Positions 3,294 to 16,827 of a DNA stretch of 64,000 bases are shown here, piece by piece. The stretch lies in the IMG/VR virus record IMGVR_UViG_3300025229_000001; one strand, 5' to 3'. Both the position numbers and the translations under genes were made by a program. The notes beneath the pieces are model-generated. The model saw only the letters and a program-made list of their open reading frames with translations, was not told where the DNA came from and did not search any database. The DNA comes from a virus. The stretch's first letter is position 1. Each line of letters begins with the position of its first letter.

Positions 3294-3304
3294 TCGAATC
3301 CCGG

Positions 3305-3333
3305 AAAAGAAAAAAGCCACTCGAAGGCGGCTT
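3305..3333 (-). terminator. Possible intrinsic terminator upstream of lysis genes
   Basis: A-tract then AGCC...GGCT stem. Confidence 0.5.
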
Positions 3334-3387
3334 AGTTGGTCATGTTGTTAGCGCGGTCTTTGCCGCAAAAAATTCACACTCAAACAC

Positions 3388-3417
3388 TTGACGGAACAAA
3401 CCCTAGGGGGCTAATAT
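3388..3417 (+). promoter_or_regulatory. Sigma70-type moron promoter with flanking inverted repeat
   Basis: TTGACG-N18-TAATAT; GGAAC...GTTCC inverted repeat overlaps it (possible operator of the adjacent HTH). Confidence 0.6.
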
Positions 3418-3470
3418 CCGTTCCAGAGGTAGCGCACCGCGCGACCCGAACAACCCGATAGGACGATCCA

Positions 3471-4565
3471 ATGAAAATCAGCTTTCGCTCGCGCGTCGAC
3501 CGCGCACCCAGAAGACATGCCAATCCAATTCAGCGAACCATCGACAGAAGATCTGGCGGAACTCAAGCGCCGTCGCAATGCGACCGGCAAGGAGATGGCC
3601 GAGGCATTCTGGCTGGGAAGCGATCAGCAGTGGCGCAAATATACGGGCGGCAAGGAACCGCGGAAGATGGGACCGCACGTTGCGTTCGTGGGCGCGGCTC
3701 GTATGGCTTTGACAGCAGAAGAGTTCAACCGTGTGCTGCAGTTCATGGAGACGTTCGGCGCACACGTTCGGCAGGACATCTCTGGAGAAGAGGGGCAATC
3801 GCAGCCCTGACGGCCTGCCTTGCTGCATGCGGTGGCGGAGAGAAGCCGGCTGACACGGCGATCGTCAAAGCGATCGTTCCAGTGGCTGTTTTGCCAGCCT
3901 CGGCAGCATCGGAGGTGTCCGCGTCGCGGCCAGCATCGACGCCGATCGTCAATATCGACGTCTACGGCGACGATGCGGCGATGGGTCTTTCGTCCTATGG
4001 CTTCGGCATTCCGGTCATCGTTAAACCAGCTTCAGCCAGCCTGCAAGACGCGCTGCAGAGGGAGTTCAACGATACCGGCATAACGGTCGCTAACCATGCG
4101 ACTGGCGGGACGTCAGCGAGTCTGATGAACCTCCTCGACGGCATGGATGGCGGCGGTGCTCCGTTCGCTCAACGACTTGCGTCAACGCAATCGACGATAG
4201 TCGTGATTAGCTACGGCCTGAACGAGCAATACGGCGGCGAAACAGTCTTCGATTTCTCGGGCTACCTTGGGCAAGCCATTCAGACAGTGCGAGATGCAGG
4301 CAGAAGACCAATTCTTGAGACTCCGCCGCCAACGTGCGACAGCGATCATCCGTTCACGGCAAGCTACGCCGCTGCAATCAAAGCGGCCGGTGCGACCTAC
4401 AACGTGCCGGTGGTCGATAACTACGCTGCGATTTCTGGTCTGGCCGATTGGCGGTCGCACATGGATGCGATGTGCATATTGCCGGATGAGGCATTGCAGG
4501 CGTTTAAAGCTCAGCAGGAGTTGACAGTCATCGGACCAATCATTAAGGCCCAATTCGGCGAATAG
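3471..4565 (+). CDS. SGNH/GDSL-fold lipoprotein, predicted inactive; true start unclear
   Basis: LAAC-GGG lipobox (Cys codon 3828-3830); blocks GDD, GLNE, ETP, DAMCILP. No ATG/GTG/TTG close to the signal peptide. Confidence 0.6.
   Translation: MKISFRSRVDRAPRRHANPIQRTIDRRSGGTQAPSQCDRQGDGRGILAGKRSAVAQIYGRQGTAEDGTARCVRGRGSYGFDSRRVQPCAAVHGDVRRTRSAGHLWRRGAIAALTACLAACGGGEKPADTAIVKAIVPVAVLPASAASEVSASRPASTPIVNIDVYGDDAAMGLSSYGFGIPVIVKPASASLQDALQREFNDTGITVANHATGGTSASLMNLLDGMDGGGAPFAQRLASTQSTIVVISYGLNEQYGGETVFDFSGYLGQAIQTVRDAGRRPILETPPPTCDSDHPFTASYAAAIKAAGATYNVPVVDNYAAISGLADWRSHMDAMCILPDEALQAFKAQQELTVIGPIIKAQFGE
3517..3810 (+). CDS. XRE-type HTH regulator
   Basis: PSTEDLAELK...GKEMAE...QQWRKYTGGKEPR, a recurrent phage regulator pattern. 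Confidence 0.75.
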   Translation: MPIQFSEPSTEDLAELKRRRNATGKEMAEAFWLGSDQQWRKYTGGKEPRKMGPHVAFVGAARMALTAEEFNRVLQFMETFGAHVRQDISGEEGQSQP

Positions 4566-4665
4566 ACGCCTACTGCGCAAGCAAGTCGCAAGATCCGGCG
4601 CAATTCGCCCGAGTCCAGTTCTCAATTGCGCTATGATGCGCCCAAACAATTCAGGAATAAGGGCA

Positions 4666-6003
4666 ATGAATTCGCTGCGTCAATGGACAATTGCGTTTTT
4701 TTCCATCGTCATCATCGGCAGTTTTCTTTCAGCAATCATACCGCCGATGCAGTCGCCAGATGAAAACGACCATATCAAGCGCGCATATCTGCTTTCTGTG
4801 CTATCGCCAACCGTAACAGAGCCGGGGCGCTCGACTGGCGGTTATTTCGACGACGCTTTGCAACAGTACCAGGTGCTGAACTTTCAGGCGCTTTCTACTA
4901 AGCCCAATGCCCGATTTGATGCGAAAACAGCAGAGGCTGGCGCAGCTATAAAATGGAGCGGCGCGCGGAGTTACGTGGATATGGCCGGCGCTGCGCCATA
5001 TTTCCCGCTAGGCTACCTCCCACAAGCTGTGGGACTGCGGATTGGCGAATCTTTGCACATGGGTGTGGGCGCATCTTATCGGCTTGCCCGCGCGACAACT
5101 CTGATTGCTGTCGCCGTTATCATCGCTTACGCATTCACGGTCTTCCCGCCGAACGCGCTGGTGATCTGCCTCCTAGCGCTGCCAATGACGATGTTCCAGT
5201 TATCGAGCGCTTCGGCGGATGGTATGTCGTTCGCATGGACAGTGCTGGCCGCTAGTCTGTTTCGACGCGGCTTGGAGCAAGACCAGCCGTTCCCGCTTCT
5301 GTGGTCCGTGCTGCTGATCGTCGCGCCGTTCATGATTGCCACGAGCCGGCCGCAACTGATCGCGATCCTGATACTGGCGCCAGTGGTTTTCTTCGTCCGA
5401 AAAGACCGCCGCGCGCTGGCTGCCTCTATCATCGCGGCGTTGCTCGCTGTGGGGTGGGTGATGTATGGAGCGTCACATACCGTCGACCTGCGGTGGCCAC
5501 GCTCGATTACGACCGGTCAGGCTGTCTCTTTCTACATTCATCGTCCCATCGAACTGATAGGAGTCATCTGGCGAACGCTGTCGAACCCGGCAGTCATCGA
5601 TTCGTACTGGCGTCAGTTCGTCGGCGTCCTTGGTTGGCTCGATCGGCCCATGCCGCCCGCTACCTACATATTAGCGGGTGTTGGCTTGCTCATTGCATTG
5701 ATGATCTCGTGCTCCCGCAGGGTGGGAGCGCTGGCTCGGACGGTGCCGTTATTGGTCGCCGCAGCCGCCGTAATGCTTACCCTCGTCGCGCTGCTTGTCA
5801 CTTGGACGGATCTTCACGCCCAACTTATCATCGGTGTGCAAGGTCGATATTTCACCGCGCCGGCCATCCTCGCTGCTTATGCCCTAAGTGATGCAGAGCC
5901 CATGAAGCGGCGATCGTCGGTGACCATGATCGTTTGCGGCGTTTTTCTCGCATTCTCAATGTCGATGACTGTGTCGACGCTGATCTGGAAATACTATTTG
6001 TAG
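4666..6003 (+). CDS. DUF2142-like polytopic membrane protein (GT-C glycosyltransferase-like)
   Basis: PPMQSPDENDH motif after TM1, SASADG, QGRYF, many TM segments. Confidence 0.8.
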   Translation: MNSLRQWTIAFFSIVIIGSFLSAIIPPMQSPDENDHIKRAYLLSVLSPTVTEPGRSTGGYFDDALQQYQVLNFQALSTKPNARFDAKTAEAGAAIKWSGARSYVDMAGAAPYFPLGYLPQAVGLRIGESLHMGVGASYRLARATTLIAVAVIIAYAFTVFPPNALVICLLALPMTMFQLSSASADGMSFAWTVLAASLFRRGLEQDQPFPLLWSVLLIVAPFMIATSRPQLIAILILAPVVFFVRKDRRALAASIIAALLAVGWVMYGASHTVDLRWPRSITTGQAVSFYIHRPIELIGVIWRTLSNPAVIDSYWRQFVGVLGWLDRPMPPATYILAGVGLLIALMISCSRRVGALARTVPLLVAAAAVMLTLVALLVTWTDLHAQLIIGVQGRYFTAPAILAAYALSDAEPMKRRSSVTMIVCGVFLAFSMSMTVSTLIWKYYL

Positions 6004-6056
6004 ATCCCAGAATCCGCTAAGGCTGCGATTTTATAGACACAAAGAAGGCGAACGCG

Positions 6057-7265
6057 GTGCGTGATATATCCATTTTTTCGGTATGGCCCATGATGGCCAT
6101 TGTCGGCCTGGTTGTAGTCGCGCTTTCCGGGCGATCCCTCCGGTTTCTGGACGTCAGTCCGACTGTAGTCGCGCACCGACTAGATTCTATCGACGGCCTG
6201 CGTGGATTCCTCGCAACAGCCGTTGCGTTCCACCATTTTGTGCTGCATGGATATGGCGCGAAGTTTGGAGTGGCTGCGCCCTCCCACTTTTATATGTCTC
6301 TCGGACCCGCAGCCGTAGCTATATTCTTCATGATTACCGGCTACCTGTTCTGGGGTCGACTTCTTGCTAAAGCCGATTCCGTGAACTGGGCGGAGTTATA
6401 TGTCAACCGGTTCTTCAGGATCTATCCACTGTATCTTTTCCTGATTGCGTCGTACTTCGCAGTGGTTTTGTGCCGCGTCCACTTTGAGATCGACCAACCG
6501 TTCAAGCAAACTGTCTTTCAAATTGCCCAATGGCTCGCACTTGGAGTCGTCAAGAATCCAGCGCCTTTTTTGAACATGGATGCTGCGATGTCGGTAGTGG
6601 GACCTGTGTGGAGCTTGCGTTATGAGTGGTTGTTCTACGCAAGCCTACCGATATTGTCTATCTTTGCTCGCCTCGGACGCCCGGTCGCATTGACGGCATC
6701 AGCACTGTTTCTTGTTCTAGCAGTCGACGGTCTGATCGCGGAGCCGTTCAGGTCGTTTCTTGCCGAATTTCTGTGCGGAATGCTCGCGTCATCGATCATG
6801 CGCACGCGACCGGCCCTCAAAGGAGATGGAGCCATACGGTCCATCATCGCTTGCGCCTTGATCGTCGCCGCGTTTCGTGTTCCGGACATCATCTATTCGC
6901 CGGTCGGCACGTTGCTTCTCGGTGGATTTTTCATGATGGTAGTTTCGGGAACGTCAATCTTCGGAGTGCTTCAAACGCGGGGCGCGCATCGCCTGGGTAA
7001 CATGAGCTACAGCGTGTATCTGCTTCACAGCCTCGTCATTACGATAGTGATGACCCGTCCCGCTATTGTTTCCTATGCCCTCGGGAACAATTCCGCATTC
7101 TGGATCATCTGCGCCTTCATGTATGTCATCACCGTTGCAATGTCCATTGCAACGTTCTCGGCGATTGAACGGGTCGGAATCTCAGTCGGAAAAGCCGCGA
7201 TTACGCGGCTCAAACGGGCATCAGACGTTCGCCCAGGTACTGGAGTTACGACCGGGCAGCCGTGA
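6057..7265 (+). CDS. Acyltransferase-3 family (OafA-like O-acetyltransferase)
   Basis: IDGLRG...FHH, FFMITGY, RFFRIYP, WSLRYEWLFY, GNMSYSVYLLH. Confidence 0.92.
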   Translation: MRDISIFSVWPMMAIVGLVVVALSGRSLRFLDVSPTVVAHRLDSIDGLRGFLATAVAFHHFVLHGYGAKFGVAAPSHFYMSLGPAAVAIFFMITGYLFWGRLLAKADSVNWAELYVNRFFRIYPLYLFLIASYFAVVLCRVHFEIDQPFKQTVFQIAQWLALGVVKNPAPFLNMDAAMSVVGPVWSLRYEWLFYASLPILSIFARLGRPVALTASALFLVLAVDGLIAEPFRSFLAEFLCGMLASSIMRTRPALKGDGAIRSIIACALIVAAFRVPDIIYSPVGTLLLGGFFMMVVSGTSIFGVLQTRGAHRLGNMSYSVYLLHSLVITIVMTRPAIVSYALGNNSAFWIICAFMYVITVAMSIATFSAIERVGISVGKAAITRLKRASDVRPGTGVTTGQP

Positions 7266-7266
7266 C

Positions 7267-9030
7267 TTACTGCGAGCCGCCGCCGAGCGTATTGCCTGTC
7301 CCGCTGTTCGAAATGTTTGTCGTGTTAGCGAAGTAGACATTCGACTGCACATTGACAGACTTGGAGCCCGACCCGAGGAGGATGCCCGTTGTCATTTCCT
7401 GAATCGCATTAGCCGTAATCACACCGGCGCTCGACGCCCAGGTGTCGATATATATGCCGCGAGTGCCAGTCGGAGATGCAACGGCGGGGTTGAATGTGTT
7501 ACCGATGATGCTGAATGCGCTGTAGTTCTGCAACGAAATCCCGTTGCTGTTGTTCTGGACGAGAAAAAAATTGTTGGCGATCATGATGACACCAACGTTC
7601 GACTGGGTAAGGATGCCGTTGTTGTACGTGTTGAACTGACTATTCGTCACGCTCAACTGGTCGAGCCCTGCCTGGCCAGTCGGAACAACGATCCCGTTGG
7701 TGTCGCCAGTGAAGTTGCTCTGGTTGACAGTAACTCCTTGCACATAGGCCGCGTAGTAAAGGCCAATGCCAAGATAGTTGAAGGTACAGCCCTGGAAGTT
7801 GTACACGACGCCCAAAGCGGTTGCCGTACCGTTCAGAATGACCCCATACGATGCGGTTGATGGGCCGATCGTAGTGACGTTCGTGAAGTTGATGTTGGAT
7901 ACGCTCGCGACATTTACGCCATTGGACCACCCGTCAGTGGCAACGTACCCGTCAGCGCCACGGGTCGTGACATTTGTGATATCCGAGAGAGCGGAGTTGG
8001 CCGGATTGGCGATGGTGCTCTGCTGCTGCGCCAGGTTGATTGCAACCCCAGTCGGCGTTGATGCCGTCGTGGTGACTGATAGATCCCTGATGTGGATACC
8101 GGAAAACGGACCGTTTGCTGCGATCGAAATTCCGAATGATGTGGCATTGAATTTCAGAATCGACGAGTCGGCTGCAACGCCTTTGATGGTGATCGAATTG
8201 GGGTTGGTGTTCGGGAAGGTATATCCGATGCTCGATGCGAAGTAATACGTGCCTTGCGGAAAAAATACGCACACGTTGCCCGTCGACTGGGCGGCTACTG
8301 CATTCGTCCAAGCGGCATTGTTCGATACGACGCCGCCGTTGTTGCCACCGTAGTCAAGTATCGACGGGCAGGGCGAGTGGGCGGCGACAAATGCCGCGTT
8401 GGCTGCCGCAGTGCTGTTCGTGCCTACTGCCGGCGTCGGAACGGTAGGCACGCCCGTTAGGTTGGCATTGGAAATCGTAGGTGCCGTGCCTAGGACGATC
8501 CCTCCTGACGACCCAGTCACTGTTGCCCCCAATGCGGAGGCAACTCCACTGCCGAGGCCTGTCAGACCCGAGATCGGAAGACCCGTGGCGTTAGTAAGCG
8601 CGACTGAGGACGGCGTACCGAGGTTCGGGGTAACAAGAGTAGGACTAGTTGCGAGAACTGCCGAGCCTGAACCTGTTGCCGTCGACGCTCCCGTCCCGCC
8701 TTGAGAGACGGACAGCGGCGTGGTCAAACCGGAGAGCGAGGTAATGTTGCTGTTAGCTCCTGCGGTAGCCCCACTGGAGCTGTTCAGCAGGGTTCCGCTG
8801 GTCGGCAACGTGATATTAGTGGAGCCCGTCGTGTTCAGCACGAGGGAGTTGCCGCCAGTGGTCGAAAAATTTCCTCCAAGCGTGATCGTTCCCGAGTTCG
8901 CGACGCCGGTTCCGCCATTGGCCGGCGTCAACGGATTCTGAAGCGTAACGCTGTTGAACGTGGGTGATGGGTAGGTCTGGGCGAGCGCCGCCAGCGGCGC
9001 AAACAGCGCCGTGATGATGATTTTCTTCAT
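7267..9030 (-). CDS. Tailspike/fibre with beta-helix (pectate lyase 3-like) depolymerase domain and signal-peptide-like N-terminus
   Basis: GGTG shaft repeats; SILDYGG...AWTNA...VFFPQGTY; Asn-rich coils; MKKIIITALFAPLAALA-Q. Confidence 0.8.
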   Translation of the reverse strand: MKKIIITALFAPLAALAQTYPSPTFNSVTLQNPLTPANGGTGVANSGTITLGGNFSTTGGNSLVLNTTGSTNITLPTSGTLLNSSSGATAGANSNITSLSGLTTPLSVSQGGTGASTATGSGSAVLATSPTLVTPNLGTPSSVALTNATGLPISGLTGLGSGVASALGATVTGSSGGIVLGTAPTISNANLTGVPTVPTPAVGTNSTAAANAAFVAAHSPCPSILDYGGNNGGVVSNNAAWTNAVAAQSTGNVCVFFPQGTYYFASSIGYTFPNTNPNSITIKGVAADSSILKFNATSFGISIAANGPFSGIHIRDLSVTTTASTPTGVAINLAQQQSTIANPANSALSDITNVTTRGADGYVATDGWSNGVNVASVSNINFTNVTTIGPSTASYGVILNGTATALGVVYNFQGCTFNYLGIGLYYAAYVQGVTVNQSNFTGDTNGIVVPTGQAGLDQLSVTNSQFNTYNNGILTQSNVGVIMIANNFFLVQNNSNGISLQNYSAFSIIGNTFNPAVASPTGTRGIYIDTWASSAGVITANAIQEMTTGILLGSGSKSVNVQSNVYFANTTNISNSGTGNTLGGGSQ

Positions 9031-9040
9031 TGTTTTCGAA

Positions 9041-9256
9041 TCAGGAGATGGAGACTACGCCGCCGTTATTCCACACGACGCCGGAAACAGAAGGGCGGGC
9101 TGTTGGAAGACTGGACGCGAGGGCCGTAAGCGTGATGATCGAGATGAGGGAGGACAGCGGCATGGTGCAAAGAGCAGATTGCCCGTTTTGCACCTGTCGG
9201 ATGGTTACCGTTTCACTCCCGGTAATAGGCTGAGGAAGTCCAAACACGTCGTCCAT
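9041..9256 (-). CDS. Small tail-associated protein ending in LPT...WNNGG motif
   Basis: 71 aa; C-terminal motif shared with the wedge protein at 9985-10884. Confidence 0.7.
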   Translation of the reverse strand: MDDVFGLPQPITGSETVTIRQVQNGQSALCTMPLSSLISIITLTALASSLPTARPSVSGVVWNNGGVVSIS

Positions 9257-9979
9257 TTAATAGCCTATCGCCATGAAGTTGACCTGAGCGAGGTTGACCG
9301 GCGCACCGTTACTCGTCACGACGGCAACCAGATTGAATCTTGTCGACGAATTGGAGAAGGACGCCTGGTTGTTGGTGACCGTTGTGCCGTTGTTCAGATA
9401 GTTCGCGACCCCAGATAGCAGTGCGTTGGGGAATGGCAAGTCTAGTGGCAGGGTCGCAATCCCCGAGGCATTTGAGACTGCCTGCCCCCACTGGAACACT
9501 AGCGGGACAAGAACGCCAGCTACTGAGCATGGGACTACAAGGTGGCCTGTAACAGTGGTGTCCGCTGAGAACTGCCCGAGATTCACCGCTTGTCCGGCCG
9601 AGGCGGCCGCAGCTACAGCTACGGGATCGTTGAAGGTGTTTGGCCCTGACCAGGTATTCGTCGACGCTAGCTGACCAAACGACGCTTGCTGACCCGCGGT
9701 CGGAGGGCTGTAGGCGTAGTCTCCGGTTAGCCACGAAAGCGCTGCGGTACCCTCTTGCCCCCGCAATACTGTTAGTGTGGATCCGGTCCTCTCCGTCGCA
9801 TATACGACCTCGTAATTCTGGCGGGTCGCGACGTCGTTCAGCGTTATGGCCAAAACCTGTCCGGAGGGGATGGACGCCGGCAGATTCGCTGTGTTCGAAA
9901 GGGTAATCGTGGTTGCGTTGGACGCGACCGGTCCTGCCAACGTCGTATTAACGTTGTTCGCGAACGTGAAGATTGTCAT
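9257..9979 (-). CDS. Short tail fibre / fibre adaptor
   Basis: FANNVNTTLA...LTVLRGQEGT anchor; C-terminal FQWG...PFPN domain; follows baseplate wedge genes. Confidence 0.75.
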   Translation of the reverse strand: MTIFTFANNVNTTLAGPVASNATTITLSNTANLPASIPSGQVLAITLNDVATRQNYEVVYATERTGSTLTVLRGQEGTAALSWLTGDYAYSPPTAGQQASFGQLASTNTWSGPNTFNDPVAVAAAASAGQAVNLGQFSADTTVTGHLVVPCSVAGVLVPLVFQWGQAVSNASGIATLPLDLPFPNALLSGVANYLNNGTTVTNNQASFSNSSTRFNLVAVVTSNGAPVNLAQVNFMAIGY

Positions 9980-9984
9980 TGTCG

Positions 9985-10884
9985 TCAGGCGATCGAGATG
10001 ACGCCGCCGTTATTCCAGAGTTGACCGGTTGAGCCCGGATTGGCAAGGGGGAGATTGCCGCCCCCAAGTGCGAGGAGACCCGCGGCGGTGACAGTTCCAA
10101 AATACACAGGCGGGGCTAAAGGATCCGGAGTAATGCCGGGAATGACAGAAACCGTCCCTCCGTTGTACCAGACAGAGCCGGCGGCCAACCCTGCTGGGCT
10201 AGTTGGATAGTTCAGAGGCGCCGTCATCCACAGAACACCTCCATCGTTGAAGAAACCGATGTTGACGAACGCAAATGTGTACTGGAACGGGAACGCGAGA
10301 ACGCCGTTGTTGAGGCATTCTTGGAGACTGGTGAAAGTGGCGTCTTGAAACGAGGTGATAGTGAACACGTTTCCCGACACCGTTATGGAGGGCGGGCTGT
10401 CCAGCACTGCGTAGTCTGATCCATTCGCGCCATTCAAGAACCGGTTGACCCTGTTCTTCAGCCACCCAAGATTGAACACCTGGCCGTCGCCGCGGTACAA
10501 GTTCCACGTCATCACGCGTTTGTAGATGTCGTCCGATGCAATCTCCGCCGCTCCGGAAGATGAGTGGCTCAGGCCGTTGTACGGCACTGTGTTGTACGGT
10601 GCGGTGTTATAGCCCGCTATCGTTGATGACGTTTGTGTGGATAGGACCGGGCGGGGTATTCCGTAAACCCCGTTACCTATCCAATCCAGCAGCGGACCAG
10701 TAACGTTTGGAGACGTGTAGAGTCCCAACGGGGTCTGGTTGTACCAGTTGAGATACCCTTGCGTGATCGAGTTGAACGCGTCAACAAACGCCTGCAGGTC
10801 CTCGTCGTCACTATATTGCTGATAGAGATAGCTCGGAATGATGTTCTGAAGCGGCAACGTCGAGAACGATTCGATATTGCCCAT
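9985..10884 (-). CDS. Baseplate wedge protein (gpI/DUF2612-like)
   Basis: Follows baseplate J; LLDWIG..YGIPRP, DDIYKR pattern. Confidence 0.7.
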   Translation of the reverse strand: MGNIESFSTLPLQNIIPSYLYQQYSDDEDLQAFVDAFNSITQGYLNWYNQTPLGLYTSPNVTGPLLDWIGNGVYGIPRPVLSTQTSSTIAGYNTAPYNTVPYNGLSHSSSGAAEIASDDIYKRVMTWNLYRGDGQVFNLGWLKNRVNRFLNGANGSDYAVLDSPPSITVSGNVFTITSFQDATFTSLQECLNNGVLAFPFQYTFAFVNIGFFNDGGVLWMTAPLNYPTSPAGLAAGSVWYNGGTVSVIPGITPDPLAPPVYFGTVTAAGLLALGGGNLPLANPGSTGQLWNNGGVISIA

Positions 10885-10886
10885 GG

Positions 10887-12302
10887 CTACCCCTGAGTGA
10901 CTGTAATCGCCGTCGCACTGGCTGAAAAATATCCTTCAGGGTCGCCAGCGATAATGCTCGTGCCGGCGCCCGGCGAGACTGGCGATCCATTGATAGTCAC
11001 GGCGAATTGCAGCGTAGTGATGTTGGAGGCTGCTATCACCGATGACACCGCGTTCTGAAACACTGCGGTCATTTCCAGTTCGTTGATTGGCTGGCCGACG
11101 TAGATCGAATTGATGTAGGACTGCAGAGCCGGCGCGGCTAACTGGTTGACCGATGTTCCTGCCGTGAAACTCGGCAGAGTGGTATTCCAGGTGACCGCGA
11201 CCGTCACAACCTGTTGAGTGGGATTGACGAACGTGATCGAATAGGTGTCCGGATTCTGGAACAGCGAAACACTTACGGTACGCGGATTCGGCGTTAACTT
11301 CGCGCCGCTCACGTATGCCCCAAAACCACTACCATTGGTCGTTGTCGTGATCGTCGTGGGCGTGACAGACGCGATCGTATAGGTGAGGTTGTAGGCGCTT
11401 GGCGTAGCTCCCGACACGGTCACCGTAGCGCCCGCAACATAACCATGGTTCAGGTTTGTCGTAATGACCACAGGATTTGCCGCGGTCATTGTCGTAATGG
11501 CGAGTTGCGACCCTTTCAGCAGTGCGATGTCGCCGGCACCTTGCAATATGGCATTAGCCACGGCATATGCATCGCCGCCACCGCAGATAACCTGCCACCC
11601 GCCTGAAACAGCGTTGACAGAAACCAGTTGCTGCTGGACTCCAGTGATTTTGTAGAGCAACGTCTTAAGGTAGGCGGGCGTGCCAATTGCAGCCACTAGA
11701 CCGGCCTGCAACACCTGGGCGCGATAGTCCTGAACGCTTTGGGTCGTCGTTGCGGCTGTTCCGGCTTCCGGGTTAGTCACGGTAACGGCATATGCGCTGG
11801 GGACAGAGGTCACCAACTGGTTAACGGTGTTCGCAGGAATCGCGAAACTTCCGCTTGTAGTCGCGACTGCATAGAGCAGGGGGCTCAGGCCGCTGGACTG
11901 GATGACTCCGCCGTCCTGAAGAGCATATTGATTGGTGCCATCGGAGACCGTGAATCCTGGCTGGAATACATAACCCGCTGGGCCTGCAAACTGCACATAG
12001 ACGCTGCCATTCGCGCCAACTCCTTGACGGACGCCGAATTGAGCGCCGAGTTGTGCAAGCACAAAGGCGTTAGCGCCATACGGGCTCACGCTGTTGATGG
12101 CGTCGACTCGAGCCTGATCTATCGCAACAAGTGCACCCGTGTCCGTGCCTGCGACGTCGTCAATCAAAGAGCCCGGCAAATTGGCCGTATAGCCAGGGAC
12201 CTGAGTCGAAACATAATTGATCAGGCTGTCGTACAGTGTGGCCACCGGAGTCGCCTGCGGCCCTGCCGTCGTCATAATCAGTGGGATAGACGTTGTGCTC
12301 AT
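10887..12302 (-). CDS. Baseplate J-like protein with inserted beta domain
   Basis: LPGSLIDD, GANGSVYVQFAG, QSVQDYRAQVL. Confidence 0.8.
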   Translation of the reverse strand: MSTTSIPLIMTTAGPQATPVATLYDSLINYVSTQVPGYTANLPGSLIDDVAGTDTGALVAIDQARVDAINSVSPYGANAFVLAQLGAQFGVRQGVGANGSVYVQFAGPAGYVFQPGFTVSDGTNQYALQDGGVIQSSGLSPLLYAVATTSGSFAIPANTVNQLVTSVPSAYAVTVTNPEAGTAATTTQSVQDYRAQVLQAGLVAAIGTPAYLKTLLYKITGVQQQLVSVNAVSGGWQVICGGGDAYAVANAILQGAGDIALLKGSQLAITTMTAANPVVITTNLNHGYVAGATVTVSGATPSAYNLTYTIASVTPTTITTTTNGSGFGAYVSGAKLTPNPRTVSVSLFQNPDTYSITFVNPTQQVVTVAVTWNTTLPSFTAGTSVNQLAAPALQSYINSIYVGQPINELEMTAVFQNAVSSVIAASNITTLQFAVTINGSPVSPGAGTSIIAGDPEGYFSASATAITVTQG

Positions 12303-12369
12303 GCGGCGTAGTGGTCAGTTCAGCGATGGAATGGGCCGCCACAAAACCTGCGGCGTTGATATGCATGTC

Positions 12370-13752
12370 TTAGCGACGGCGCGCCTGAATGTTTCCGTAC
12401 GCCGCCATCGTGCCCCCGGAGAACGTCACGGAGCCGGATAGATAAAGTGTGGTGGTTGCTGAAACATTGATCCGACCCATGCCGGTTTGTACGGCGGTCC
12501 CCTGACTGGCAGTGAAGGCAGTCGACATGAAGAACCACGGTTTCGCCGGATCAGAATCCGTTGGCATCGTCGCGGACGTGGTGCTAAGCCATGCGGAAAT
12601 CAGGGCAATGGAGGTCACACTGCTGGGCTTGGTAATAAATTGCCCCCAGATGTCCCAGTCGCCCGGTGTCAGCGTGATCGACGTAACGTTCGTTGCTGTC
12701 TGGTTGGCAAAAGCTACTGCCGAAGCCTGAGGGACGTTCGATGAAATCGGTTCGCCAACACTGCCGGCCGTCACGTTGCTGCCGGTTGCGTTGCCCACGA
12801 TGCCAGCGGGATACGCCGGCGTGATAGCACTGGTAGCCTGAAGCGTCGAGAATTTGCCGGCTGCAGCAGTCGTTGTGCCGATTGCCGGAGGCGATGCGAG
12901 GTACGTGCTGAATCCGGCGCCGCTTACCGTGCTGGATGCAGACAGAGTAGTGAAGGATCCAGCCGCCGCCGTAGTGCTTCCGATGGCTGGCGGTGACGCA
13001 AGATAGTTGCTGAAGCCCGTGCCACTAACCGTGCTGCTCGCCGCGAGTGTCGTGAACGATCCTGTACTGCCGCTGACCGGAGCGTTGGTGATCGTCCCGC
13101 CCGAGATGGTCGGTGAATTGATCGTCGGGGATGTTCCGAAAACCGCCGAGCCGCTGCCCGTCTCGTCAGACAGCACTCCGGCCAATTGCGCCGATGTCGT
13201 CGCTGCGAACTGCGCAAGCGTGCCGGTCGTCGTGGCCGAACTGGCGTAGCACGTGAAGCCAGTGCCGCTCGTGTACTGCAGCGCGCTCGTTGAAGTGCTG
13301 CAACTCGGCATCGCGAACGCAGTCGGCGATGCGCTTAATGCAGTGACATTTGCAAGCACGCTATTTGCCGCCTGAGCAGCCAGCGACGAAGGAGAAACCA
13401 GTCCGGGAGCCGTGAGCGATCCAGTTACAGTGAGGCCGGAAATTGTCGGCGACGCGGCGAGCACGACATTGCCCGAGCCGGTAGAGGCCGTCGCTCCGGT
13501 GCCGCCTGACGCGACTGGCAAAGGCGAGGTAAGACCGGAGATTGTGCCGCCAGTAATGGCGGTTCCCGACATCGTGCCGCCGGTAATCGTAGCGTTGCTG
13601 ATCGATCCGCCGGTGATAGCTGCAGCCGAATTCGACGTCTTGGACGCTAGGGCGCTATTCAACTGCGCGGCGGTAAGAATCTGGCCGGGCGTAAACTGGG
13701 CGTTCGCGGCCGAACAGACGAACAGCAGGAAGGGAAGTAGACGTCGAATCAT
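12370..13752 (-). CDS. Tail fibre with signal-peptide-like N-terminus
   Basis: Start at 13752 makes an ATGA overlap with the upstream stop; MIRRLLPFLLFVCSAANA-QFTPGQILTAAQLN; PVASGGTG shaft; SITLTPGDWDI C-terminal domain. Confidence 0.8.
   Translation of the reverse strand: MIRRLLPFLLFVCSAANAQFTPGQILTAAQLNSALASKTSNSAAAITGGSISNATITGGTMSGTAITGGTISGLTSPLPVASGGTGATASTGSGNVVLAASPTISGLTVTGSLTAPGLVSPSSLAAQAANSVLANVTALSASPTAFAMPSCSTSTSALQYTSGTGFTCYASSATTTGTLAQFAATTSAQLAGVLSDETGSGSAVFGTSPTINSPTISGGTITNAPVSGSTGSFTTLAASSTVSGTGFSNYLASPPAIGSTTAAAGSFTTLSASSTVSGAGFSTYLASPPAIGTTTAAAGKFSTLQATSAITPAYPAGIVGNATGSNVTAGSVGEPISSNVPQASAVAFANQTATNVTSITLTPGDWDIWGQFITKPSSVTSIALISAWLSTTSATMPTDSDPAKPWFFMSTAFTASQGTAVQTGMGRINVSATTTLYLSGSVTFSGGTMAAYGNIQARRR
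12845..13070 (-). repeat. Tandem ~35-aa repeat in fibre (two copies plus a partial)
   Basis: GSFTTLxASSTVSGxGFSxYLASPPAIGxTTAAA twice, then GKFSTLQA. Confidence 0.85.
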
Positions 13753-14153
13753 GCGAGAGCCGATTGATTGAGAATAAACGTGCTGTCCAGTTGCGGAGCA
13801 GTGATCGAGGAGTCGACGTAATCGGTCAGTACGGCGCCGCTGTGGCAGGTGATGCTGACGTTGTAGACGGGTGGAGACGTGGCCTGCTCCCGCGCGATGG
13901 TCAGAGACGCGAAGTATTGGGCGAACTGCGTCTGGGTCTGCATGACGTAGTAGTCGGGCAGAACCTGCGTGACGATCGTTTGATACTGGGGAATTCCGTA
14001 GTTTGCGTAGATCGGCGATTCGCCAAGATTCAGTTTGAGACATTGCGCGAGCGTGGTCATATAAACCGAGTCGTTGTAGCCGTTTGCATCGGTTTCAACG
14101 ACGACCCACGTCTTCGTACCATCCGCGTTAGAGATTCGTCCGTAAGTTCGCAT
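13749..14153 (-). CDS. Baseplate wedge initiator (gp25-like)
   Basis: Position between spike and J; LKLNLGESPIYANYGIP. Confidence 0.65.
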   Translation of the reverse strand: MRTYGRISNADGTKTWVVVETDANGYNDSVYMTTLAQCLKLNLGESPIYANYGIPQYQTIVTQVLPDYYVMQTQTQFAQYFASLTIAREQATSPPVYNVSITCHSGAVLTDYVDSSITAPQLDSTFILNQSALA

Positions 14154-14177
14154 TCAATTGACCATTCCGATTTATCT

Positions 14178-14831
14178 ATGCCAGAAACCTATCCGCCGAA
14201 CTTCTTCACGCACGACAACCTGCTGACGCTGTCTCGCGACTATCTGGTGCTCGTGCTTTTCCTGCGGAGTCGTTCCGAGGTGTTTCCGTGGGCCATTGAG
14301 GTAGCGAAGAGCGCCCCCTTATTTGCGGTGCGAGACCTTGAGACGCTCAAGGTTCACGTGGCCGGGTTCGCTGCGACTTTTGATGGCGCCACGCGCGCGA
14401 TGGATCTGATTCATTACGTTCGCGGTTGGCGAGGAACGCATTTCTATGCGCAGGGGCGCATGGTCATTGGCGAAATGGAGCCGGCGTTCGAGATAGAGGC
14501 AGTACTAAAATGCTTCGCCGATTCGTGCGCTGCGCGAGACCATCGGGCTCACTGTTTCCGGCTGATTGATGACCCGTTCAATCCACTGGCGCCATATCGC
14601 GCGTTCGACCACGTTGCGCCGAACTTCAGGCACTTCGAAGCGGCATCAATTGACGGAACATATGTCTTCCCGTGTCGACACATGCTGCAGTGGTTCAGGC
14701 CGCAAATGACTCACCCTGCATCAATACCAGACCAGATACAGGCCGAGGGCGTCGCGCACTATTGCGATGTCTGCCCACGGTTCGCGCCCGACGATTTCGG
14801 GATTAACACAGGGAGTGCCAAGAAATGCTGA
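14178..14831 (+). CDS. Moron, cytoplasmic hypothetical protein (217 aa, Cys/His clusters)
   Basis: Start moved to MPETYP, since the ORF-track extension overlaps a real minus-strand gene; CFADSC..RDHRAHC, FPCRH, HYCDVC. Confidence 0.65.
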   Translation: MPETYPPNFFTHDNLLTLSRDYLVLVLFLRSRSEVFPWAIEVAKSAPLFAVRDLETLKVHVAGFAATFDGATRAMDLIHYVRGWRGTHFYAQGRMVIGEMEPAFEIEAVLKCFADSCAARDHRAHCFRLIDDPFNPLAPYRAFDHVAPNFRHFEAASIDGTYVFPCRHMLQWFRPQMTHPASIPDQIQAEGVAHYCDVCPRFAPDDFGINTGSAKKC

Positions 14832-15163
14832 CTCGTTGGATCGTGCTGACCGCAGCCCTGTTGCCATCGCTTGTCCATGCCGTTGACCTTTCCGGAATTC
14901 CTCAGAACTGCCAGGCCCCGCTCGCGCACGACATGGAAATGGCCAATATCCCTTACTTACTGGAACTTGGCGAGAACGCCGCTCGGATCACATCCATACA
15001 AACGCTTGGCGGAACGCCAGCTTACGAGTACTACCCCGGCCTCTATCGAATCGACTGCTATATCACCGTCCACTGGAGCAATGGAACGGTTGATTACGCC
15101 CACAAGTTCAGCATGTGGCAGGACAAATATGGCGACCTGAAGGGCTCGTATTCGCAGCGCTAA
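14825..15163 (+). CDS. Moron, secreted/periplasmic small protein
   Basis: MLTRWIVLTAALLPSLVHA-V signal peptide; two Cys; overlaps upstream gene by 7 nt. Confidence 0.7.
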   Translation: MLTRWIVLTAALLPSLVHAVDLSGIPQNCQAPLAHDMEMANIPYLLELGENAARITSIQTLGGTPAYEYYPGLYRIDCYITVHWSNGTVDYAHKFSMWQDKYGDLKGSYSQR

Positions 15164-15864
15164 TTGATCGGTGGATCGGTCTGCGTTTTTGTTCCTGTGC
15201 CAGGGAAGTAGCCGTGAGTGTGGTTCTCGTAGCTCTCGCCGTTAATGCTTAGCCCTGAGCCATCCAGGACGATGGTGTTTGTCCCAAACATCATAGTGAT
15301 TCCGCTAGCGTTCAACACGAGGGATGTCGAGCCATAGTTCAATGCCGTTTCGGTGGCATTGATCACCACCGTGTTGGAGCCGAACGTGACAGTGGTTCCA
15401 CTGGTGTCCGTCACGATCTGGGAGGTGGGACCTTCCGTCGTGCGAATAATGGCGCCGTTGGGACCCTGAACCTGCGCCGCGTTTTGATCAATCGGCGGCG
15501 ATCCCGAGTTGCTGATCGGAACGAACACCAGGGCGCTCAGATTGCCCGGCCTGGTCAGTGTCGCGACTCCACCACCCAACCCCGAGACCCCGCCAAGATA
15601 TGCGTCCGCGGGCATCGTTACGCCCTTGTCGCCTACCTGCGTCGGCATCCGGACCCACGTGCTTTCAGCCTTTGGGATCGTAATGTTGGGCAGTGTGAAC
15701 GGTGCCGCATTAACCTCAAAGGCAACCGTGACGATCGATCCGCTGACCTTTACAACCCGGCACGGTAGAGCACGGCCCAGATTCTCGATTGCCTGTTGCG
15801 CTCGGTTGATCGCCGTCTGGTTAGCGCTTCGCTGTACCCACAGTTTGGCGTAGTTTTCAGACAT
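15160..15864 (-). CDS. Baseplate central spike (gpV-like)
   Basis: OB-fold start (LPCRVVKV), beta repeats, terminal NHTH metal-binding HxH. Confidence 0.85.
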   Translation of the reverse strand: MSENYAKLWVQRSANQTAINRAQQAIENLGRALPCRVVKVSGSIVTVAFEVNAAPFTLPNITIPKAESTWVRMPTQVGDKGVTMPADAYLGGVSGLGGGVATLTRPGNLSALVFVPISNSGSPPIDQNAAQVQGPNGAIIRTTEGPTSQIVTDTSGTTVTFGSNTVVINATETALNYGSTSLVLNASGITMMFGTNTIVLDGSGLSINGESYENHTHGYFPGTGTKTQTDPPIN

Positions 15865-15867
15865 CGA

Positions 15868-16827
15868 TTAACTCGGGATGATGATGCAGTTCGCTATCGT
15901 CGACCATTGCGCCGCGTCGGGTGATCGGAAGTTTCCGATTTGCCGCAACTCGTTGATGATGAAGTTGCTCTGGAAGGTCGTCTGGTACTTGATGCTCGCG
16001 GGGTACGCGCTCGCACTGGTCTTGATGTAACCGGGAGCATTTTGAAGCCCCTCCGGCATCTTGACTATCGCGCCCATTTGCAGATCCGCTCGAGCGACCA
16101 TCTTCGTCTGGATCGTATTGACACCGATCCACGTCGGTTGGCCCACGAAATCATTGAAGTTCAGCTGGATCGGGTTCGGCTTGTATGTACTGTCATAGAC
16201 GACGATCTGTCCCGCCTGAATGCCGATGGTCACCCGGTTGTCAAAGACGCCTTCGGTGATGTCCCCTACGATTTGTGCGAGTTGATCCAGCGTCCCGCAA
16301 ATATGCGGCTCATCGTGGCTTTGCACAAAATCGCCACTGATGTTCATCGACACCTGAAAGCCTGGGTACGCCACTGAAAACGTCTGCTTCAGCGCATCGG
16401 CGAGCGACATGCCCGCGCTCCAGTCAAGCAGGATGTTGGCCGGGTTGTCGACCGTGTAGACGCCAGGAATCACGACGAAGTCGAGCGTTTGGTCTACGCC
16501 CTCCCAGTTGCCGAACGATTGAAAGATCGTCCCCTTCAGGATCGTGCCCGCTTGCGCAGGGTTGACCAGCGGCAGGCCAGCGCGCATGCCCGCCTTGAGC
16601 TCCAGCGTCATGCCCGCGAACTGCTGGGCCTGCGTCAAATCCTGGAGCGGAATGCCGTAGATCGTGACGGTTGATGCGCCGCTCGGCGTACCGTACGGCC
16701 CGACCAGCGCGTCATATTCGATATTGAGAGCCGCAGGGTCATAGATGTTGTTCGGATGCGAGGTGTAAGTCCGAAACGGCGTCGTGCTGCCCTTTGGCGT
16801 GATGGTCAGGGAATAGTATCTGCTCAC
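15868..16827 (-). CDS. Baseplate hub protein
   Basis: Position upstream of spike; size and pattern typical of hub proteins. Confidence 0.7.
   Translation of the reverse strand: MSRYYSLTITPKGSTTPFRTYTSHPNNIYDPAALNIEYDALVGPYGTPSGASTVTIYGIPLQDLTQAQQFAGMTLELKAGMRAGLPLVNPAQAGTILKGTIFQSFGNWEGVDQTLDFVVIPGVYTVDNPANILLDWSAGMSLADALKQTFSVAYPGFQVSMNISGDFVQSHDEPHICGTLDQLAQIVGDITEGVFDNRVTIGIQAGQIVVYDSTYKPNPIQLNFNDFVGQPTWIGVNTIQTKMVARADLQMGAIVKMPEGLQNAPGYIKTSASAYPASIKYQTTFQSNFIINELRQIGNFRSPDAAQWSTIANCIIIPS

Follow-up and report, generated by a model that had tools for sequence, protein, structure and literature searches.

Sec-type leaders and paired C-terminal tags on fibre and spike cassettes in the tail operons of Burkholderiaceae phages

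The particles of tailed phages are taught as cytoplasmic assemblies. Why, then, should two genes within a baseplate operon, whose products look like receptor-binding proteins from their operon context and C-terminal domains, begin with sequences resembling signal peptides of the Sec pathway? This question is raised by a stretch of 64,000 nucleotides (the window) from the IMG/VR virus record IMGVR_UViG_3300025229_000001, a record of 68.5 kb rated complete. Positions 7267-16827 on the minus strand of the window make up that end of a tail operon which encodes the baseplate and fibres. One of the two genes (P0002) is located between a phrog_7986 gene and the baseplate J gene, and the other (P0001) lies downstream of a fibre gene. 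Their N-termini belong to two families, referred to here as modules A and B, and the parts of the two proteins on which the question turns are the following:

7267-9030, minus strand: P0001, 587 amino acids (aa), a module A spike consisting of leader, QTYPSPTF box, GGTG shaft and beta-helix
8980-9030, minus strand: P0001 leader, 17 aa, with a KK n-region, a hydrophobic core and an ALA/Q site
8905-8979, minus strand: conserved mature N-terminal box of module A, QTYPSPTFNSxTLQNPL..GGTG, in which Q18, P21, P23 and F25 are invariant in the module A alignment
12370-13752, minus strand: P0002, 460 aa, a module B fibre consisting of leader, QFTPGQILTAAQLN box, GGTG shaft, Cys-flanked hairpin and TNF-like tip
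13699-13752, minus strand: P0002 leader, 18 aa, with an RR n-region, a hydrophobic core and an ANA/Q site
13645-13698, minus strand: conserved mature N-terminal box of module B, in which Q19, G23, L26, A28, L31 and N32 are invariant in the module B alignment

The original prediction, made from the window alone, had assigned a Sec-type leader with an AxA site and a glutamine at position +1 to both genes, and the N-termini that it quoted, MKKIIITALFAPLAALA/QTYP for P0001 at 9030 and MIRRLLPFLLFVCSAANA/QFTP for P0002 at 13752 (the slash marks the predicted cleavage point), are exact in the sequence. A simple home-made pattern of n-, h- and c-regions plus AxA was passed by just four of the 85 open reading frames (ORFs) in the window, encoding a lipoprotein, a membrane acyltransferase, P0001 and a small protein, P0008, so the leader observation is well beyond chance. 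P0002 was scored with this pattern from an upstream start only, and fits it when the true start, 13752, is used. The leaders might be put down to misassigned start codons or to N-termini that are hydrophobic by chance, and the ORF of P0002 does reach upstream to 14043. However, a start upstream of 13752 is ruled out by the starts of the homologues and by the 4-nt overlap, as ATGA, between the ATG of P0002 and the stop codon of P0006, the overlap on which the prediction had based this start and which is present in the sequence. About 240 homologues share this start architecture, and few window ORFs pass the rule. Such an artefact is extremely improbable, and is effectively refuted by the homologue starts, the leader statistics and the IMG/VR loci.

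Homology searches seeded with the first 110 residues yielded 181 and 173 proteins, nearly all from Burkholderia, Paraburkholderia, Caballeronia and related metagenomes. The N-termini fall into module A, a leader followed by the QTYPSPTF-type box, and module B, a leader followed by QFTPGQILTAAQLN, and together represent about 240 distinct Burkholderiaceae phage and prophage sequences. In 89 module A and 62 module B proteins, the n-region contained K or R in 148 of 151 leaders, an acidic residue was present in 8 of the 151, and the median of the 9-residue Kyte-Doolittle mean was 2.7-2.9. Position -3 was alanine in 93% of module A and 82% of module B proteins, position -1 was alanine in 92% and 95%, respectively, and Gln+1 was invariant in the alignments made from the homology hits of both modules. 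The leader sequences themselves vary, with a length of 17-31 residues in module B and a positional entropy in the leader core of 1.79 bits (A) and 2.56 bits (B), compared with 0.69 and 0.73 bits, respectively, for residues 1-16 of the mature protein. A leader that varies ahead of an unchanging -3/-1 site and mature start is the pattern of a cleaved signal peptide, unlike that of a structural N-terminal element. Conservation of the leader in homologues, which had been proposed as a check, was found in these 89 and 62 database proteins and in 152 of 152 IMG/VR loci with a locatable mature motif, and there was no leaderless full-length sequence among them; three database entries begin within the leader and are probably miscalled starts.

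These data bear on the idea that the leader does not serve export, being instead a hydrophobic N-terminal element of a fibre assembled in the cytoplasm, for example one that is hidden within the baseplate or acts on the host membrane during infection. No tail part of a tailed phage is known to assemble outside the cytoplasm, and the C-terminal tags described below are found on proteins without leaders, both of which would agree with this idea. However, length and sequence would be expected to stay constant in a structural element, yet here the length varies almost twofold and the entropy reaches 2.6 bits, and conservation is confined to what Sec and signal peptidase recognise, namely positive charge near the start, hydrophobicity in the core and small side chains at -3 and -1. 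We therefore regard a role other than export as doubtful.

Both leaders combine a basic n-region, an h-region, an AxA site and free evolution of the leader ahead of a conserved mature start, as in substrates of Sec and signal peptidase I. Other types of signal were considered and rejected. For a lipoprotein signal, there is no cysteine after the AxA site, and the F-V-C sequence within the h-region of P0002 is non-canonical. A minority of module B leaders (loci L011, L018-L020 and L026) have a lipobox-like L-[LF]-[AS]-C sequence six residues before AxA/Q, and some of these relatives might be lipidated instead of being cut by signal peptidase I. For a Tat signal, P0002 has the RR pair, but its relatives have KK, KR or IK at this position, and the S/T-R-R-x-F-L-K motif is not conserved. 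For a signal-anchor-release (SAR) domain, the leaders are rich in Leu, Ile and Phe and end in a canonical cleavage site. The signal peptides look genuine, with conservation over hundreds of homologues. The prediction had also seen in them the strongest candidate for an undescribed assembly route; the leaders as such had been noted before, as the GenBank record of gp49 of Burkholderia phage Bcep781, a module B protein, already reads 'possible tail fiber; possible signal peptide domain'. In the literature, we found no account of exported tail fibres or tailspikes, nor any paper explaining these leaders.

The cysteine content of the mature proteins was also compared with that of other proteins from the same loci. 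None of the 121 distinct mature A and B proteins is Cys-free, whereas 124 of 673 other same-strand ORFs of at least 200 aa are, although this control set includes spurious ORFs. The number of cysteines is even in 61% of the mature A and B proteins versus 44% of the Cys-containing controls, and Cys density is higher in the former (Mann-Whitney p = 8e-7). A PSC-x(14-22)-C motif is present in 39 of the 151 leader-bearing proteins and in just one of the other hits, which also bears a leader. In P0002, two mature cysteines, mostly co-conserved, are placed as follows:

13249-13302, minus strand: Cys151...Cys168 pair of P0002, around a predicted beta-hairpin, candidate disulfide

These are modest and indirect signs that the A and B proteins may fold in an oxidising compartment. 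Given the leader statistics, the cysteine signal and the fact that no leaderless forms were found, we consider it quite probable that P0001 and P0002 are exported and cleaved.

Within each module, the N-terminus is conserved while the C-terminal parts are swapped among beta-helices, SGNH esterases, Gp53-like tips and glycine-rich domains, which is the usual pattern of host-range proteins. The C-terminal parts of the two proteins in the window are:

7294-7794, minus strand: right-handed beta-helix region of P0001 (NosD/pectate-lyase-like)
12373-12765, minus strand: TNF-like, jelly-roll lectin-type C-terminal tip of P0002, residues about 330-460

Residues 413-579 of P0001 match Pfam NosD (E 2.6e-6), and its homologues bear PF12708, PF13229 or PF05048; the beta-helix is likely to be the glycan-binding or depolymerase part. 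Residues 1-43 of the same protein are 79% identical to a 687-aa protein of phage vB_Sb_QDWS. The AlphaFold2 model of P0002, computed as a monomer, is usable only for the tip (last 130 residues, predicted local distance difference test score 84-95) and the Cys hairpin; the low confidence of the shaft is to be expected, because a trimeric shaft was modelled as a monomer. In Foldseek searches, the tip matched the trimeric TNF-like lectins BC2L-C N-domain and PLTL, as well as the short-fibre binding domain of cyanophage A-1(L), and in BFVD it matched Klebsiella phage tail fibres. At the sequence level, it matched phrog_11393 and, by tblastn, the fibre C-termini of the isolated podophages BcepC6B (gp19), KL4, Dickeya BF25/12, PPWS1 and Kp2. 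The extreme C-terminus of the tip (12373-12390) is conserved and basic, with ..IQARRR in P0002 and IRARRVR, IRARRIR or HCRRPR in relatives. The gp19 gene of BcepC6B (locus L002, 3470-4543) lies between the tailspike and holin genes of this phage, and its product has a third type of leader, MKKLIAILLAVPALALG/ATLAP, together with the Cys motif and C-terminal sequence domain of P0002.

If the two proteins are exported, what ties them to the virion? Each module was found to travel with its own C-terminal tag on the upstream gene, and this is the new observation made here. The tag-bearing proteins of the window are:

9041-9256, minus strand: P0007, 71 aa, a small protein with C-terminal tag A
9044-9082, minus strand: tag A of P0007, GVVWNNGGVVSIS, at the C-terminus
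9985-10884, minus strand: P0004, 299 aa, a DUF2612/phrog_8212 baseplate-module core (about 208 aa) plus an extension of about 90 aa with WxNGG repeats
9988-10026, minus strand: tag A copy of P0004, GQLWNNGGVISIA, at the C-terminus
10144-10182, minus strand: tag-A-like internal repeat of P0004, GSVWYNGGTVSV
13749-14153, minus strand: P0006, 134 aa, a phrog_7986 baseplate-module protein with a core of 115 aa and a C-terminal extension
13752-13823, minus strand: C-terminal extension of P0006, ending in tag B, LDSTFILNQSALA (13752-13790), and missing from the 115-aa QDWS homologue

Tag A is WNNGGVVSIS, in its longer form ...LPTxxPxxxGVVWNNGGVVSIS, and tag B is ...LDxTFxL(N/D)xSxL; the WxNGG repeat is clear twice in the P0004 extension, with a third, weaker match. 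Of 78 module A loci (65 distinct), 61 (52 distinct) encode a protein ending in tag A directly before the module A gene, the carrier being a P0007-like protein of 70-90 aa in about half of the cases and sometimes a P0004-like protein, as in locus L120, where the module A gene follows directly. A protein ending in tag B directly precedes the module B gene in 52 of 73 loci (34 of 52 distinct), and the start codon of the module B gene usually overlaps the stop codon of the tag B gene by 4 nt. In the window, P0001 starts 10 nt after the end of the P0007 gene. There was no cross-pairing of a tag with the wrong module in the loci examined, and among 4311 other ORFs of the same loci tag A occurred 39 times and tag B 27 times (<1%).

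The tag A loci had been chosen by module A, and enterobacterial DUF2612 proteins therefore served as a module-A-free comparison: these homologues match P0004 at residues 12-205 only, and the phages encoding them have no match to the module A N-terminus. Tag B is present on at least five unrelated proteins, namely phrog_7986 (P0006-like) proteins, Mu gp48 (PF10076), a 170-aa Cys-rich protein, a 248-aa protein and the 129-aa gp50 of Bcep781. Nine of 30 distinct P0006-like proteins have an extension of about 20 residues ending in tag B and 21 lack it; a module B gene directly follows 8 of the 9 tagged but none of the 21 untagged proteins (Fisher p = 1.5e-6, uncorrected for phylogeny), and tagged and untagged proteins interleave in identity. 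At locus L091 (about 3300-3420), a P0006-like protein with the tag B extension is followed directly by baseplate J, and the fibre gene has either been lost or is located elsewhere in that phage.

The coupling of tag and cassette shifts the odds towards attachment to the virion, and the tags may act as docking peptides for the mature N-termini. The original prediction had seen a fibre anchor in the mature N-terminus of P0002, and it was right in so far as this segment is conserved and coupled to tags on upstream baseplate-module proteins, to which it may bind. In a complex prediction with three copies of mature P0002 residues 19-110 and P0006, the score was 0.01, with the partner poorly folded, which weighs neither for nor against docking. 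A search of the literature found no virion proteome of a phage with either module. In view of the place of the genes in the operon, the translational coupling, the conservation of the mature N-termini, their pairing with tags and the fibre-type tips, it is rather likely that P0001 and P0002 are attached to virions.

Attachment could be squared with cytoplasmic assembly if export were partial, with a cytoplasmic fraction docking on the tags as the virion receptor-binding protein and an exported fraction constituting a soluble by-product or accessory enzyme. Many phage depolymerases occur both bound and free. However, in the cytoplasmic fraction an uncleaved hydrophobic leader would directly precede the conserved docking box, there is no conserved internal start or leaderless isoform (P0001 has no internal Met before residue ~550), and the Cys enrichment argues for a functional form that folds in an oxidising compartment. 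We consider such a dual pool unlikely.

The reading that we put forward instead is one of assembly in two compartments. P0001, a beta-helix spike, and P0002, a lectin-tipped fibre, from two cassette families of Burkholderiaceae phages, would be made with genuine Sec-type leaders, cross unfolded into the periplasm, be cleaved by signal peptidase I and be trimmed to an N-terminal glutamine, probably present as pyroglutamate. They would fold and trimerise in the periplasm, possibly with disulfides. The mature N-termini would then dock on the C-terminal tags of baseplate proteins made in the cytoplasm, P0002 on tag B of P0006 and P0001 on tag A of P0007 and P0004, and this would be possible only after holin lesions or lysis had joined the compartments. 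That the virion-attached pool is the exported pool, docked once the compartments merge, is a tentative proposal. The same holds for the wider reading, a two-compartment assembly route with portable tag-plus-fibre cassettes in a class of Burkholderiaceae phages including cultured virulent ones, which is possible rather than probable. The interpretation given in the original prediction, in which the proteins are exported and either join particles at or after lysis or act as released depolymerases or receptor blockers, is in part supported, and the leaders proved more widespread than it could tell from the window.

Several points weigh against this route. The leaders were judged by a home-made rule, and export, cleavage and virion content are all read from sequence. 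The topology is awkward, with the tags on cytoplasmic proteins and the fibres in the periplasm until lysis. The coupling of tags and cassettes could stem partly from shared recombination junctions, and the cysteine signal is modest, with three cysteines in P0001. In locus L005, the module B gene lies outside the tail operon, behind morons and with its own upstream gap, and in locus L003 it is found in an island without recognisable virion genes and without an upstream tag. Finally, the phage encodes a third fibre, which lacks a leader, in agreement with the prediction, so that infectivity can be explained without the leader-bearing proteins:

9257-9979, minus strand: P0003, 240 aa, leaderless fibre with a Gp53-like_C tip

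Some of these points would be expected if P0001 and P0002 were exported but absent from the virion, as late periplasmic or secreted lectins or depolymerases acting on the envelope glycans of the producing cell. Such proteins might prevent new virions from sticking to debris, block receptors or loosen exopolysaccharide, and the tags would then have another role or be recombination scars. The evidence from the leaders applies identically to this explanation, and the L005 and L003 genes, the presence of P0003 and the surface-modification module adjoining the spike gene all agree with it. Exported bacterial proteins of this type also exist. The Bdellovibrio MAT fibres have a signal peptide, are trimeric and combine a conserved domain after the leader with swappable tips, including TNF-like lectin domains (PMC10769870), and Pantoea WceF is reported to be a tailspike-like protein bearing a signal peptide (PMC7949094). 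Modules A and B resemble the MAT fibres in architecture (leader, conserved N-domain, swappable tip). However, the MAT fibres and WceF are encoded by cellular genes outside a phage baseplate operon, without paired docking tags on baseplate proteins. Moreover, a strongly conserved mature N-terminus serves no obvious need of a free enzyme, and free export leaves unexplained both the specific pairing with C-terminal tags on baseplate-module proteins and the translational coupling within the baseplate operon. We judge free export to be somewhat unlikely.

Among known systems, the two-compartment route would work most like Sec-exported and SAR endolysins (fOg44 Lys44; P1 Lyz and R21), late phage proteins that use the host Sec pathway and are kept in the envelope up to the time of holin triggering (PMC6116005). 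Endolysins differ in that they are lysis enzymes rather than virion parts, and SAR domains remain uncleaved whereas the leaders described here have a canonical AxA site. A second comparison is with branched receptor-binding-protein systems, such as those of G7C and CBA120, in which extra spikes are attached through short docking modules of their own, transferred together with the spike genes. In these systems, the proteins are leaderless, assembly is entirely cytoplasmic, and docking is by domains, whereas the present tags are C-terminal peptides of 13 residues.

If fibres do mature in the periplasm, their attachment would be a post-holin step, and host Sec, signal peptidase and Dsb functions would be host factors for infectivity. 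Tag-plus-fibre cassettes would be a simple portable means of hanging new receptor-binding proteins on a baseplate, of use for host-range engineering of laboratory phages and tailocins. If the proteins are instead free exported enzymes, they would form a large group of phage effectors, expressed late and acting on the envelope, that has so far gone unrecognised.

Among species-representative genomes, only those of Burkholderiaceae were found to contain module B. This module is carried by the cultured virulent Burkholderia myophages Bcep781 (gp49), Bcep43 (gp48), Bcep1 (gp51) and BcepNY3 (tail fibre), and also by BgManors32 and three Ralstonia phages. Bcep781 gp49 resembles P0002 in its module B N-terminus, with a leader ending in AFA/QFAPGQVLTAAQLN, and gp50 (129 aa), directly upstream, ends in tag B (RLDIDFVLDKSILG), as does P0006. 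The Bcep781 group differs from the phage of the window in comprising virulent myophages with another backbone, and in the C-terminus of gp49, a pectate-lyase-type beta-helix instead of the lectin tip of P0002. Because these cultured phages carry module B, the question is directly testable at the bench.

Phage vB_Sb_QDWS (OK094664) has the same order of tail modules as the phage of the window, its 687-aa module A protein being preceded by an 87-aa tag A protein and followed by an O-acyltransferase. It differs in lacking a module B gene and in the absence of the tag B extension from its 115-aa phrog_7986 protein, and its recorded host, Shewanella, is doubtful. In the window, the genes are transcribed in the order 319-aa baseplate protein, 234-aa baseplate protein, P0006, P0002, P0005, P0004, P0003, P0007 and P0001, with P0005 as follows:

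10887-12302, minus strand: P0005, baseplate J-like wedge protein (phrog_6, E 6.8e-23), the QDWS homologue being annotated as baseplate J

Adjoining the spike gene, positions 3471-7265 on the plus strand contain a surface-modification-like module, consisting of a GDSL-family protein, a DUF2142 membrane protein and an acyltransferase-3; the O-acyltransferase of QDWS is at the corresponding place. P0008, the small protein that passed the leader rule, is a 112-aa ORF at 14825-15163 on the plus strand, antisense within the baseplate operon, with its own Sec-type leader (MLTRWIVLTAALLPSLVHA/VD); Pfam and PHROG searches with P0008 gave no match.

A few other loci have unusual arrangements. The L003 island (9001-10449) contains the module B protein P0131 together with AlpA, pRha, a satellite-like PriCT_2/Toprim primase-helicase and PyocinActivator, and may be a satellite bringing its own fibre. 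In a Mu-like prophage of the Paraburkholderia xenovorans LB400 type (locus L004, 9001-11319), the module B gene lies between a tagged gp48 and a leaderless 'MFRIDD...' fibre with a small chaperone-like gene; because the canonical leaderless fibre is retained beside the module B gene, the leader-bearing fibre is an addition and not a replacement. In a divergent contig, probably from a short-tailed phage (locus L049, 6492-9883), tag B is found on the 170-aa Cys-rich protein, which is zinc-finger-like. The 161-aa protein encoded after the module B fibre of this contig has another leader, ending in GHA/QTFPVSN, and a 442-aa tailspike further on is leaderless.

Two database records, OK094664.1 'Shewanella phage vB_Sb_QDWS' and OP650936.1 'Hujiaoplasma phage zrk29-1', are both 47,902 bp long and gave the same matches, and the 687-aa QDWS spike is also labelled Klebsiella pneumoniae in NCBI. 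Given a tail module of Burkholderiaceae type, these host labels look unreliable. Instead of the spike ORF, the QDWS record lists an antisense 'hypothetical protein'.

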